Source of the DNA: a virus
Lineage: Duplodnaviria; Heunggongvirae; Uroviricota; Caudoviricetes
Reading direction: 5' to 3' (one strand)
Length of the DNA stretch: 35,626 nt
IMG/VR virus record: IMGVR_UViG_2874962485_000008
Shown: positions 30,001-35,626 of the stretch, piece after piece
How the letters are laid out: each line of letters opens with the position of its first letter
How positions within the stretch are numbered: the stretch's first letter is position 1
Made by a program: the position numbers

Positions 30001-33000
30001 GTTTATTGGGTCTGGACTCCACACCGCGGGAGAGCTGGCTCAGCGCAATCAACGGAAAACCACCGGATTTTGCCAGGCCTTTAAGCCCCTTTGAGATTTC
30101 ACCCACGGCAAGGTCATGACGCCCCGTGGTTCGGGTTTTTATCAGCCCGAGATAATCAACCACCACCAGCGCCGTTTCCGGATATTTAATCAGGTGGTGT
30201 TTCGTTGTTGCGCATATCTCATCAATGGCCAGGTTCGCCTGGTCCACCATCCAGATATTGCGCCCGGTCATCCGCCCCACCCCTTGTGAGAAACGCGTCC
30301 AGTCTTCATCTTCAAAGTGAGCCACAGATTTCAGGCGTGATACTGGCATCCCTCCAGCCGCAGACACCATACGTTCACCAATCTGGATGTTCGCCATCTC
30401 CATGGTGAACAGAAGCACACCATGCCCCTGCTCAGTCACCTTGTCGATGATGTCCAGCGCAAGTTCGGTTTTCCCCATCGAAGGACGGGCGGCAATGAAT
30501 ACCAGGTCTCCGGGCTCCATACCGCCTGTTTTTGCGTCCAGTTCATCAATACCGGTCATCAACGTCCTGGATTTCTCCAGCCCCTGATTCCGGCATTCAA
30601 CACGCTCAACCACTTCCGGAAGCACATCATCAATATGTACCGGCTGAATGACGCCCTTTCCTGTCGACAGTGTGACCATCATGTTCTGCGCATCCTTCAG
30701 GGCATCTTCAGCTGCTTCACAGGTATGCGCATCACGTAATTTCTGCAGCGCCTCATTCAGTGTTTTTTCTGCATCGCGCAGTGCGGCATTGCGCCGCAAC
30801 GCTGCAACATAGTGCTCCAGTGAAGACTTCACCCAGGTTTTACGCCCGGTATCAGTAATCACCGGGGCAAGTTCCGGCATCTCATTACACAACAGCACGG
30901 GGTCAATCACTCCTGAAACACGGGCCTGTCTGCAGATGCCTGTATAGATATCCTGATACGCTCGTACAGAAAAAACGTCCGCTGGCAGTGTGGCCAGAAT
31001 ATCCATCACTTCAGGATCTGCTCCGCGCAGAAAGAACGCGCCGATGACAGCGCCTTCAAGGTCATCGTTACGCCATACTGGAGTTGTCATGCAGCCACAC
31101 CTCTGATACGAGAACGGTAACTGGGCCAGTTAAACGACAACCAGTTGCGTCCCCCGTCTGTGATCCTGTCGGCAATTCGGGGACTGATGAACGCCCACAA
31201 CTCTTCCGGTGAGAGGTTACTGATCAGAATGGTGGGCAAGATACTTTCGTACCTGGCGTTGATAATTTCCTGCAAAATAGCCATTTCAGCCGCGCTGCCA
31301 AACTGAACGCCAACTTCGTCGATGATCAGCAAATCCATTGACGCATAACGCTCAATAACTTCATCCGCTGTTTTTTCGCTGTCATTCCGCCAGCAATTTT
31401 TCACAGCACGGGTAAGGCGCATCACGTCGGTGATCTCCACACTGGCCAGATAGTTACGGATGATGTGTTTTGCCATAGCCACAGCCAGATGATTTTTTCC
31501 GGTACCACAACTGCCGGTCATAACAAGACTGGTACCGTTCTCCAGCATATCTGGCCAGTTCTCCGCATAGCGGCGACAGGCCGCAAGATTTCTGGCTGCG
31601 CCAGGATTAACCTCCAGATAATTATCAAACTCGCAGTCCCGAAAACGCAGGGCAATTCCGGCGTTATCAGTCAGCTCTTCCGCCTTGATGGACGACAGCT
31701 CCATGGTCAAATCGTTGGCCTCAGCGATTAAGCAGTCAGGGCAGCATGAAATTTCTTCTCTGTCCTCGCCATTACGATCGCTCCACACCAGTATATGCGT
31801 GTGATATTCGCCATGTTTTTCGCAATATCCGCGACCTTCACGCATCAGGCAGGAACGATAAGGCCATGGCTTTTCGCCCTTCTGAGCAAATGCAATCTCT
31901 GCCCGTAACTCATCCATTCGCGCCTGTAGTCTTTTTTGTTGTTCACGCAGGTTAAACGTCATCATCGCTGTCACCTCAGAATGTCTGAAGTGGTCAACAA
32001 AAACTGGCCACCGAGTTAGAGTTTTTCCAGTATCGATTTTCCGATTCGTTTGGGGGTAACCCACCGTTATATTCGTGCGGTCTTAGTGCACTGTAATATC
32101 CAACGATATAGTCCGTTATGGCGTGAGCTGCCTCGCTGAAGCTTACGTAACCCACCACCGGCATCCATTCGTTCTTCAGACTCCTGAAGAAGCGTTCCAT
32201 TGGGCTGTTATCCCAGCAGTTTCCGCGCCGGCTCATACTCTGTCTGATCTGGTATCGCCACAATAACTGCCGGAACTGCCTGCTCGTATAATGACTGCCC
32301 TGATCGCTGTGGAACATCACCCCGCCGGGCTTACCACGGGTTTCCCATGCCATTTCCAGCGCTTTCATGGTGAGCCTGCTGTCCGGCGAGAACGACATGG
32401 CCCAGCCCACTGGTTTTCTTGCGAACAGGTCGAGAACAACGGCGAGGTACGCCCAGCGCTTACCCGTCCAGAGTAGAGTAAGAGGCAGGGCGTAGTCGGA
32501 CTATTTCCCTGCCTCTCCTCCCCGAACCGGACGTGCACCTTTCAGCGCATCCGGCTCTCCATTTAAATGCTGGCGAACGCCATTGCCACTTCTGTAAAGC
32601 GCGATGTATACGTGTTTCTGGTCTCCGTCCTCAGATAGGGATTACCTTCGGGTAGCCGCCAGCGGAACAGCTTCTTGCCTTGCCCCACCAACCGGTACAG
32701 TATTTCGCCGCTGAGCTTGCCGTGATTGGTTTTACCAAATAAAACCCACGTTTTGCTCTGACCCGGTTTCGGTGATTTACACCACCACCTCATCAGGGAA
32801 GCGATACCTGTACGGTATTTGCGGGCCAGCCAGTGAGCCAGCTTCCAGAACACGACACGGTCGATATAGCTGAAGACTTTGGCCTTAAAATCAACGAACT
32901 GATAGAACATGGCCCAGCCTTTCAGTTTTCGGTTGAGTTGTTCAGCCATATCGACTTTGCTTTCACTGTAGTTGCCTGATAACAGTGCTGTCAGCGATGC

Positions 33001-35626
33001 GGCGAAGTTTCTGGCTTTCTCCTGCGGGATCGTTGAGACCACTCGCATCTCGCCATAACGACTGCGTTTGCGAATGATCCTGTGCCCCAGAAAGATAAAG
33101 CCGTCATTAACATGGGTGATTTTAGTCTTATCCATGTTCAGCCTGAGTTTCAGACTGCCTTCGAGCACACCCCGACACTCCTCCCTGATGGCTTCCGCCT
33201 GTGCTTTGGTGCCTTTGACGATGAGGACAAAATCATCGGCATAGCGGCAGTACGCCACCGCGGGTTTCCACTGCCAGTTTTCTCTGACCGCCGTACTTCG
33301 GCCCCGTTGGATACTGTTATTCCAGTACCACCGATCTTTTCTGGCTTTCCCGCTCAGGTAGCGCTCATGCAGGTATTGATCGAACTCATTCAGCATGATG
33401 TTCGATAATAGCGGCGATATAACACCGCCCTGTGGCACACCTTCACTGGCCGCCCGAAAGAGACCGACATCGATATGTCCCGCCTTGATGGTTTTCCACA
33501 GCAGAGTCATGAAACGTGCGTCACTGATCCTGCGGCGTACAGCCTTCATCAGCAGTCGATGATGTACGGTGTCGAAGTAACTGGACAGGTCGCCTTCAAT
33601 CACCCAGCGTCCCCGGGTTTCACCACAGTCTGTGAGCTGTAATTTCACCGTGCGGATCGCGTGGTGGACACTGCGCTCAGGCCGGAAGCCATATGAGAGC
33701 GTATGAAAATCACTCTCCCATATCGGCTCCATCGCCATCAGCATGGCCCGCTGAACAATACGATCCCGCAACGCGGGGATACCCAGTGGTCGCAGTTTGC
33801 CGTTGCTTTTAGGGATGTAAACCCGTCTGGCGGGCAAGGGCTGGTAGTGGCCTGAGAGTAATTCATCCCTGAGGATTTGCAGCTCAACAGCCAGTCTGGC
33901 CTGTAGCATTGTTTTGTTCACGCCATCAACGCCGGGGGTATGGGCCCCCTTTGATGAAAGCGTGATCCGCGCCGCTTCAGCCAGCCATTCTGGTTGTGTT
34001 ATCAGACGCAGCAGCCGTTGAATCCGTAGGGACGGATCGGTGGCTGCCCATGTGGCAAGCTTGCGTTGCATTTCGCTGATTATCAAAGGTCTTCACCTCG
34101 TTAGGTCAGTTAATTCACGTCGCAAACACATTCAAACTGCTTCCCTTCGCCATGTAATGGGCTTTCCCCATCGCGGACTACTACGGAAGCTCCGCCAGCC
34201 AGCGCGTCATCGGAGCCATGCCCCCTTAACATCCGTCGCTGACCTTCCCCGGTTTACCTGCCTGGACTCAGGCATACTGAGGAGGCTGCCCGTCGCACTC
34301 TTTATCCTTGCTTGCCGCAAGTTGGCAGAAGTCAGCAACGCAAGTGTGATAGACGCTGCTGCCCCGGTGTTTCGCATACATGTCAAAACACCTTCGACCG
34401 GCAGTGCTTACGTATCACTGCCAGTTCCTCCTGCACGGCCTGTCAGATCACGTAGGCCGTGGTGACGTTTTCAACCCACAGAGGCGGATTAACGGGTTCA
34501 TGTTCTTCAGCCTTTCAGTACTTAACCTTGAGGATCATCTCGGCTTAGTGATCTCGCCTCAATCCCCGTTGTCAGCGGGTTACATCACCCTGCGGGCATG
34601 CCGCAGGTCACTGCCGCTCAGGTTCTCCACCGTCACACCCGGTGGGATTGTTGGGTTTCTCATCGTGAGTTACCGGTTCAATATTCCAGACAGACTCGCG
34701 GTTCATTTAAGCATCCATGCCCGCCCTGAACTCCGGGCACACTATAGGTCACATCACCGCACCACACCTGATTTGGCTCGGTCACGGCGAACTGCCTTTC
34801 AAGGTAGTTAGGGATAGCAACATGTTCATGACCACCACGTTTATACCGGTGAGTCGGCTGCTGACAGCTGACCAGCCCCAGCTCTTTCATGAGCCTGCCA
34901 GCAAGCCAGCGTCCCATCTGGTAGCCTCTCCGGGTTGCCATTGTGGCGATGCTTCTTGCTCCGGCCGAACCGTGGCTGATGCCATGTAGCTCAAGTACCT
35001 GACTGCGTAATACAGCCCGTCTGCCGTCTGGTTTTTCAGGACGGTTTTTCCAGTATCTGTAGCTGCTGCGATGAACCCCGAACACATGGCAGAGTGTGAC
35101 CACAGGATAATGCGCTCTGAGTTTCCCGATTATCGAGAACTGTTCAGGGAGTCTGACATCAAGAGCGCGGTAGCCTTTTTTAATATTTCATTCTCCATTT
35201 CAATGCGTTGTAGCTTTTTCCTGAGCTCACGGATTTCAATTTGTTCCGGGGTAATGGGGGAGGCTTTTGGTGTTTTGCCCTGACGCTCATCACGCAGTTG
35301 TTTGACCCATCTTGTCATTGTGGAAAGGCCAACATCCATAGCTTTGGCGGCATCTGCCACCGTGTATTTCTGGTCAACAACCAGTTGAGCGGATTCGCGT
35401 TTAAACTCTGCGCTAAAATTTCTTTTTTTCATTGGAGCACCTGTGTTGTTCTGAGGTGAGCATATCACCTCTGTTCAGGTGGCCAAATTCAGTGTGCCAC
35501 TTCAGGGCTAACCTGATGGATCGCCATGCGGATTTCATTAATCGCTTTGATGCGATCATCTTCCGGCAAGCTGGCGAGAAATTGCGTTAAATCCTGCGTT
35601 AATCGTTGTTGCATAGTATCCCCCAT

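Follow-up and report, generated by a model that had tools for sequence, protein, structure and literature searches.

Near the right-hand end of a 35,626-nucleotide stretch of viral DNA (Caudoviricetes; IMG/VR record IMGVR_UViG_2874962485_000008; this whole stretch is called the window below), an insertion sequence (IS) lies between the gene of a DnaC-like helicase loader and a truncated gene at the window edge. The element is one copy of IS911, a member of the IS3 family, and it carries a group II intron. It was compared with related loci and genomes from an assembly collection, which are numbered from L002 to L051. According to this comparison, the IS of the window is probably a hybrid of two older IS911 insertions, most likely joined by homologous recombination between IS911 copies. 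Both of its joints pre-exist separately in other genomes, and the IS of the window therefore looks like their recombinant.

The two joints and how they met

IS911 was first isolated from Shigella dysenteriae and moves by copy-out/paste-in transposition, generating a target duplication of 3-4 bp. In the window, the tip of the right inverted repeat (IRR; TGAAGTGGTCAACAAAAACTGG on the plus strand) begins at 31986, and the spacing between it and the start codon of the DnaC-like open reading frame (ORF), whose A is at 31965 on the minus strand, is exactly 20 nt (31966-31985). The tip of the left inverted repeat (IRL; ...CCACTTCA) finishes at 35504. The tip-to-tip span is thus 3519 bp (31986-35504), compared with approximately 1250 bp for IS911. 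The flanking triplets are GTC (31983-31985) and GGG (35505-35507), without any direct repeat, and the 3-bp (rarely 4-bp) target duplication of the family is absent from this copy. The missing duplication reflects a secondary rearrangement and not that the element is something other than IS911. The sequence across both joints is clean and contains no Ns. An earlier reading made from the sequence alone (the sequence-only reading) had placed the IS911 terminus 20 bp upstream of the DnaC-like start with an intact ribosome-binding site, had noted unequal flanking triplets without duplication, and had seen a reading frame opening at the window edge which is cut by the far side of the IS. All of these observations held: the ribosome-binding site GAGGTG is kept, and the cut frame opens with the ATG at 35624-35626 and forms a fusion ORF of 45 aa.

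The gene cut at the far side was identified by homology as chromosomal ybdM. All 122 nt between the IS and the window edge are identical to ybdM of Escherichia coli K-12 MG1655, and the far flank is therefore chromosome and not phage. The same 122-nt stretch was found in 5393 of 5426 complete E. coli genomes. The product of ybdM is an IbrB-like domain protein (ParB/Srx fold), and the gene is located downstream of ybdN. The 45-aa fusion ORF gave no Pfam match; it is indexed in 953 blocks of the collection, and its contexts were inspected in 25 contigs, drawn from the 24 blocks whose contigs are longest, all of them NCBI assemblies. The ybdM/IRL joint (a slash marks a joint here and below) was identical in these approximately 25 long contigs. 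Several of the accessions retrieved in the look-ups are Shigella flexneri chromosomes (PMC9455713). Among the 5426 complete E. coli genomes, none had the ybdM/IS911 joint at a coverage of at least 80%.

Four loci, L004, L005, L006 and L009, have the simple insertion, ...GTTAGCCC/IS911/CCCCTTTCG..., which is followed by the rest of ybdM and by ybdL. The native ybdM sequence is AGCCCCTTT, so the insertion in these loci has a 3-bp CCC duplication. Joint 1, between ybdM codon 41 and IRL, derives from this classical IS911 insertion, and the GGG/CCC beside the IS in the window is the left-hand copy of the original duplication. The IRR side of the ybdM copy has other partners elsewhere, namely two breakpoints with deletions in the ybdK-ybdJ region (one in L007, the other shared by L008 and L010) and phage DNA in L011. 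Because of these alternative partners, the IRR side must have been exchanged repeatedly.

At the prophage end, the native sequence of the site is ...GTGACAAACT/GACATTCTGAGGTGACAGCGATG in L011, in L017 to L019 and in L002, a prophage of enteroinvasive E. coli (EIEC). Judged from this sequence, the GAC beside IRR would be the right-hand duplication copy of an IS911 insertion that was later lost. The joint IRR/GACATTCTGAGG was observed at the same nucleotide in L015, L016 and L021, where IRL adjoins the Rz1 region of a different prophage. L015 and L016 are of serotype 2a, and the S. flexneri 2a strains G1663 (CP007037) and AR-0425 (CP044152) are among L015, L016 and L021 (PMC9455713). Joint 2, IRR/GAC at 20 nt before the DnaC-like ATG, pre-exists in genomes of the S. 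flexneri 2a type, where the left partner is another one. The window is collinear with these 2a and 2b genomes over the 10.9 kb beginning at this joint; it differs from them by 1-6 mismatches and shares their IS in the Nu1 gene. With serotype 4b and 1b strains it is not collinear.

In K-12, ybhB and ybdN-ybdM are on the same strand, approximately 171 kb apart. The window has ybhB on the plus strand and ybdM on the minus strand, the latter reading outward towards ybdN. The prophage is at the lambda attachment site attλ, with ybhB at 1-477, and not beside ybdM; in L040 the same prophage is still attached to ybhC. An IS911 oriented as in ybdM and an IS911 oriented as at the dnaC site are inverted repeats on the K-12 map; if two such copies recombine, the DNA between them is inverted, and exactly the observed joint appears at one of its borders. 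The pairing of the window would have come from a homologous exchange between the IS911 in ybdM and the one upstream of dnaC. Such an exchange would have attached the right-hand two thirds of a decayed ipaH lambdoid prophage, next to ybhB, to the ybdN-ybdM' side, and with a K-12-like gene order it would have been of inversion or translocation type and not a local deletion.

The sequence-only reading had pictured IS911 entering the prophage, followed by a contiguous deletion of the immunity and initiator region into a neighbouring gene. The absence of a duplication agrees with this, as do the early genes missing in comparison with the intact prophage L002. However, the cut gene is far from the ybhB/ybhC site on the K-12 map and inverted, the ybdM joint has its own CCC duplication in the genomes with the simple insertion, and L040 shows the other side of the prophage attached to ybhC. 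Since the flanks of the window are inverted relative to each other on the K-12 map, a contiguous local deletion is excluded on a K-12-like backbone, and we regard the scenario as very improbable. What stood of that reading was a rearrangement mediated by the IS; the local insertion with adjacent deletion did not.

One informative IS911 single-nucleotide polymorphism (SNP) was found among the S. flexneri copies, at alignment column 1148, approximately 100 bp from IRR. The base is T in the window, L016 and L021, and C in the intact ybdM copies of L004 to L006; as a single site, this is suggestive of a chimeric IS and would fit one.

Several points weigh against recombination of two older copies. 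Firstly, L015 has the same IRR/dnaC joint with C at column 1148. The intron is missing from the IS911 copies of L015, L016 and L021, which requires a separate retrohoming or conversion step. Recombination further predicts a reciprocal copy, X/IRL-IS911-IRR/CCCCTTTCGTGAAAAGCC (the 3' part of ybdM, then ybdL), with two candidates for X: ...CATCATTTTCAGCTTT from the Rz1 side of the other prophage, which L015 has, or ...GAACTGCGCAA from the 5' part of a Toprim gene. This reciprocal joint was not seen, the material being the window without the rest of its genome. The pairing ybdM'/IS911::intron/dnaC was absent from the approximately 25 long contigs with the ybdM' fusion ORF, and the IRR/dnaC joint with an intron-bearing IS911 was absent in the scans of genome representatives and metagenomes; the pattern used for these scans, an exact string of intron end, 487 nt and dnaC flank, is valid and matches the window. 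No complete E. coli genome covers the whole region. Exact-protein look-ups with the fusion ORF, the DnaC-like protein and LtrA gave many S. flexneri arrangements, none with the pairing of the window. The S. flexneri backbone is in addition already rearranged, and the inversion is established only relative to the K-12 order. The predicted ancestral left joint, ...ACTGAC/IS911 tip, had 0 matches in the genome representatives and metagenomes; these collections are evidently without the relevant Shigella genomes, so this result is not evidence against the model.

The last point on this side is that an L011-like ancestor gives the same product by a deletion of 4683 bp next to the IS. The event would have been a single, intramolecular and transposase-driven one, in which the IRR of the ybdM IS911, or of an L011-like derivative, attacked the site 20 nt upstream of dnaC and caused an adjacent deletion or inversion, with no second IS911 copy needed. 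In L011, ybdN-ybdM'-IS911 is fused to this same prophage 4683 bp further upstream. It reads ybdM'/IS911/CAA-Toprim3', then 4683 bp, then the dnaC flank, and it is 100% identical to the window over an overlap of approximately 4.1 kb (window 28000-31985 on the prophage side); taking exactly these 4683 bp next to IRR out of L011 gives the window. Other IS911 copies without duplication also adjoin deletions, as in L018, which lacks 2869 bp of the Toprim gene, and in L007, L008 and L010, which lack the region from the 3' part of ybdM through ybdK. Adjacent deletions are a documented cause of missing duplications (PMC11708052). However, the identical IRR/GAC joint occurs with a different left partner in three other genomes, so a deletion would have had to end on that very nucleotide on two occasions, unless recombination took part after all. 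Moreover, four further genomes have an IRL/GAC joint at this nucleotide, a sign that IS911 once sat there, and the IRR-proximal SNP is T in the window and C in L011. We consider a single event of this kind unlikely.

IS911 is highly repeated in these genomes, and the 3.5-kb IS911::intron repeat might also have joined two unrelated contigs in assembly, which would agree with the exact pairing not being seen in the other assemblies examined. Such an artefact is hardly credible: the fusion of ybdN-ybdM'-IS911 to this prophage recurs in a second, independent assembly (L011/L051), each joint occurs on its own in many complete genomes, and the window carries clean sequence through both joints. Recombination between two older IS911 copies is thus the reading that we prefer for the pairing of the two joints.

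IS911 in either orientation at one nucleotide

Joint 2 most likely dates from an earlier event, the collapse of an inverted pair of IS911 copies to one copy. The observations behind this come from three sites. At the dnaC site, the flank abuts IRL in L012, L013, L014 and L020 but IRR in the window, L015, L016 and L021. The second site (L019 5298-5300) is in the gene for a 968-aa Toprim primase-like protein, where L011 and L017 have IRR/CAA-Toprim3', while L012, L013, L014 and L020 read Toprim5'-CAA/IRR...IRL/GAC-dnaC. The third is in a DUF1133 gene, with the native sequence ...TTGGTGGCGG... taken from an EIEC genome. Here L012, L013, L018 and L020 have IRR/GTGGCGG, L014 has IRL/GTGGCGG with approximately 1 kb lost on the other side, and L017 has GTG/9-nt IRL remnant/IS911.

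CAA is found beside IRR on both sides of the Toprim site, and the dnaC flank beside either IRR or IRL; recombination within the IS can therefore not interconvert these joints. Homologous recombination alone was rejected on this logic as the source of IS911 in either orientation, since a crossover inside the IS keeps every joint between flank and IS end. Shapiro-type replicative inversion was rejected as well, because the partner flanks do not match (GTG instead of the expected GTC) and the Toprim5'-CAA flank would stay next to IRL.

The ancestor of joint 2 would have had IS911(+) at the Toprim site and IS911(-) at the dnaC site, 4683 bp apart, with the duplications CAA and GAC, respectively. 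Tip-to-tip loss of the 4683-bp spacer together with one IS copy would give either of the observed forms; in this configuration the tips would be 8-bp direct repeats. Tentatively, and with more doubt than confidence, we suggest that a precise collapse from tip to tip has several natural outcomes, of which the dnaC-side joint may be one. The surviving inner tip would land on the nucleotide of the outer tip of the lost copy, and the IS911 transposase might catalyse the reaction with a resident end as target. A tip-to-tip collapse would explain the three sites (dnaC, Toprim and DUF1133) with IS911 in either orientation at an identical base. The collapse could be either transposase-driven or microhomology-driven.

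IS911 has been reported to target the ends of resident IS911 copies, and end-targeted insertion is known from plasmid assays; the papers on targeted insertion of IS911 are reportedly those of Loot in 2002 and Rousseau in 2008. If the collapse is catalysed by the transposase, these loci would be field evidence for the end-targeted pathway, and flipped IS copies that have no target duplication would generally arise in this way. In that case the joints in either orientation could interest transposition specialists.

Two further loci were noted at these sites. In L017, a 9-nt IRL tip, TGAAGTGGC, is located at 4040-4048, directly outside the IRL of a complete IS911 and next to the native flank ...TATATTGGTG; this tip is the scar of one IS911 end joined into another IS911 end. 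Comparison of L018 4941-6189 with L019 3321-6189 showed that IS911 replaces the 2869 bp of the Toprim gene in L018, with the flanks CAT and CCG.

The IS911 element and its group II intron

Once the intron is removed, alignment to uninterrupted IS911 copies gives an element of 762 + 487 = 1249 bp (Table 1). The part at 34743-35504 is 100% identical to the IS911 copy in ybdM of L004 to L006, and the part at 31986-32472 has 99.8-100% identity to uninterrupted copies. Pfam HTH_Tnp_1 was found in orfA (35130-35432), HTH_21 on the 5' fragment of orfB, and rve, rve_3 and rve_2 on the ORF at 31994-32410. The A6G slippery motif AAAAAAG is at IS position 324, and orfA and orfB are in a relative -1 frame, orfB being broken by the intron. 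The terminal inverted repeats are imperfect, with tips starting 5'-TGAAGTGG, and both the repeats and the length agree with IS911. Over 3.5 kb, the IS911::intron unit shares 99.5-99.6% identity with E. coli loci that RefSeq annotates as 'IS3-like element IS911 family transposase' together with ltrA. Compared with a typical IS911, the copy in the window differs in having no duplication and in the splitting of orfB by a group II intron. Its transposase would be obtainable only after splicing of the intron; with orfA and the A6G motif intact, it could still come from spliced RNA. The sequence-only reading had recognised neither the intron within the 3.5-kb element nor ybdM.

Table 1. Features of the window, in order of their coordinates.
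Feature	Coordinates	Strand	Remarks
ybhB, complete, 158 aa	1-477	+	PBP family
ipaH-type effector of the type III secretion system (T3SS), E3 ligase, 587 aa	1060-2823		NEL and LRR_TTSS; tail-fibre end of the prophage
Second IS3-family element	24908-26064	-	100-aa HTH_Tnp_1 ORF and 272-aa rve ORF; between lysis and terminase genes
tRNA cluster, four genes	28267-28577	-	Gly-TCC, Thr-TGT, Arg-TCT and a CAT-anticodon tRNA; between Q and lysis genes
DnaC-like helicase-loader gene, 292 aa	31087-31965	-	Pfam IstB_IS21 1.5e-15, Bac_DnaA 5.8e-07; first gene past the IS
20-nt remnant between IRR and the DnaC-like ATG	31966-31985	-	Ribosome-binding site GAGGTG 6 nt ahead of the DnaC-like ATG; last 10 nt of the 302-aa gene, TGA stop included
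IS911, 3' part, 487 bp	31986-32472	-	orfB 3' exon (rve DDE domain, C-terminal part) and IRR
Group II intron, E.c.I4-like, 2270 nt	32473-34742	-	Sense orientation within IS911 orfB; bounds from alignment to intron-less IS911
Intron domains V-VI (catalytic core)	32473-32559	-	Rfam RF00029 Intron_gpII, 64.9 bits (gathering score 40), E = 2.1e-11, full model 1-77
Reverse transcriptase (RT)/maturase, LtrA-like, 502 aa, intact	32563-34071	-	Pfam RVT_1 1.4e-34, GIIM 1.3e-10
IS911, 5' part, 762 bp	34743-35504	-	IRL, orfA, A6G frameshift motif and orfB 5' exon
Fusion ORF, 45 aa	35489-35626	-	YbdM residues 1-41 and EVAH from IRL; ATG is the last three bases of the window (35624-35626)
ybdM 5' fragment	35505-35626	-	Codons 1-40 and 2 nt of codon 41; 122/122 nt identical to K-12 MG1655

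The 5' end of the intron is GTGTG (GTGTGCCC) and its 3' end ...CTCTAC, which agrees with the GUGYG/AY boundaries, and the IS911 exons rejoin to uninterrupted sequence with no bases gained or lost. In the collection, 23,079 blocks are indexed for exactly this LtrA protein, which bears the RefSeq name 'ltrA: group II intron reverse transcriptase/maturase'. Intron copies with at least 99.8% identity were found in 11 other loci (L013 and L022 to L031), all in sense orientation. Three of them (L013, L022 and L023) have the intron at the same IS911 position, and seven (L024 to L029 and L031) have it at the homologous place, the D(V/I)TY(I/V) coding motif, in transposase genes of other IS3-family elements. 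The copy in L030 is upstream of a vgrG-like gene, with flanks that are similar, though less clear. The site consensus is ...GA(T/C)(A/G)T.AC.TA(T/C)(A/G)^TC..., where the caret marks the intron; the 5' exon ends in ...AC(C/T/G)TA(T/C)(A/G) and the 3' exon starts with TC. The intron is a passenger, homing in sense orientation into the conserved ...W.GD.TY(I/V)... motif of IS3-family transposases.

Homing into IS629, IS911, ISEc16 and ISEc31 has been described for the intron E.c.I4 (Leclercq & Cordaux 2012, PMC3522654), and S. flexneri 301 and 2457T have a single full-length copy of it, in SHI-1 (PMC3522654). The intron of the window can be called E.c.I4-like, a name resting on the published homing behaviour and not on comparison with a reference sequence. 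Like E.c.I4, it is a full-length bacterial group II intron with an RT/maturase ORF and a fixed site in IS911 orfB in sense orientation. Unlike E.c.I4 as published for S. flexneri 301 and 2457T, the copy is inside the dnaC-adjacent IS911, both in the window and in L013 (strain FDAARGOS_690).

The prophage remnant and its setting

The window begins with ybhB followed by ipaH (1-2823), and the prophage is therefore on the ybhB side of the lambda attachment region, with a virulence effector. After ipaH come the tail, head and terminase genes, the second IS3-family element, the lysis genes, four tRNAs, Q, and the DnaB-like and DnaC-like genes, all on the minus strand. The Nu1 ORF (24557-24880) matches only positions 85-163 of its profile and is thus truncated, by the second IS3-family element; this insertion is common to the S. 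flexneri 2a/2b loci L013 to L016 and L021. The CAT-anticodon tRNA is annotated as Ile by RefSeq in the EIEC relative. The DnaC-like gene is 99.9% identical to that of an EIEC prophage, where it is named 'ATP-binding protein', and the exact protein is present in 5168 blocks of the collection. No sigma-70-like promoter or terminator was found within 31700-32300. A hybrid outward promoter driving dnaC from IRR had been considered and was dropped, as no sigma-70-like site is present in this interval.

The nearest intact relative of the replication region is the EIEC prophage L002, with 99.9% identity. Upstream of its DnaC-like gene, L002 carries a 302-aa gene (annotated 'replication protein' or 'DNA-binding protein' in some genomes), a 77-aa gene, Rha, cro/cI-like regulators, xis and int, approximately 12.3 kb that are absent in the window, where the IS joint is located 10 nt short of the stop-codon end of the 302-aa gene. 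No phage-derived DNA was found past 31985 in the window, and of the integrase, immunity, initiator and intact packaging genes that make a functional lambdoid prophage, none is there. The prophage is a remnant without replication-initiator, immunity, integration and intact packaging functions.

The sequence-only reading had held that the IS event removed the initiator and immunity region. Neither a 3-bp repeat at the IS ends nor intact early genes beyond them occur in the window, and the absence of this region upstream of the DnaC-like gene was confirmed; its loss by the present IS joint was not. The regulators, xis and int are found in L002, but in the fullest S. flexneri versions of the prophage (L019 and L041) no cI or int occurs within 10 kb upstream. 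Instead, a Toprim primase-like gene, NinB/NinE and a toxin-antitoxin pair are located there. The loss of the immunity and integration region therefore probably preceded the IS joint of the window and was not caused by it.

The Toprim_2 protein of 968 aa is encoded at 3475-6381 in L019, and also in L038 and L041, upstream of NinB/NinE and of a Gp49/HTH_3 toxin-antitoxin-like pair. It has a weak LAGLIDADG_3 match and is possibly an intein- or homing-endonuclease-containing primase.

With its DnaC-like loader (an IstB/DnaA ATPase) and DnaB-like helicase in place of lambda P, followed by NinH, Q, tRNAs, lysis genes and terminase, the region resembles a lambdoid replication module. Unlike an intact module of this kind, it lacks the putative initiator (the 302-aa gene) and all early-left functions, and its Nu1 is truncated.

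On the chromosomal side the window stops at the ATG of ybdM, which is a pseudogene here. Beyond ybdM', related loci carry ybdN fragments, citR, dsbG and ahpC. In L004 to L011 and L042 to L051, ybdN is also broken, with one or two additional IS elements separating its fragments from citR; decay in this lineage has thus reached the entire ybdN-ybdM operon.

The importance of these results is mostly one of annotation, in that a synteny breakpoint of a Shigella flexneri-type genome can now be read correctly. The consequences are a prophage remnant unable to replicate, integrate or excise alone, the ybdM pseudogene and, as predicted, an IS911 transposase that depends on splicing. The element also illustrates a general rule: an IS without duplication can be decoded through the duplication which each of its flanks has in relatives.

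Inversions, deletions and pseudogene formation driven by IS are well known from Shigella genomes. The feature described here is an event of an already known type, a recombination breakpoint at an IS911 copy that has an E.c.I4-type intron as passenger, in a chromosome resembling that of Shigella flexneri, and the IS911 joints in either orientation in related genomes are its sole unexplained point. Like the known duplication-less IS copies that arise by recombination between IS or by adjacent deletion (Ngan et al. 2024, PMC11708052), it marks a synteny breakpoint. As in those cases, each flanking triplet matches a different ancestral duplication, and several alternative partners are found across strains. 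It differs from them only in its pairing, which brings ybdM' together with the dnaC side of the attλ ipaH prophage through an intron-bearing IS911, an arrangement not seen in the other assemblies examined.

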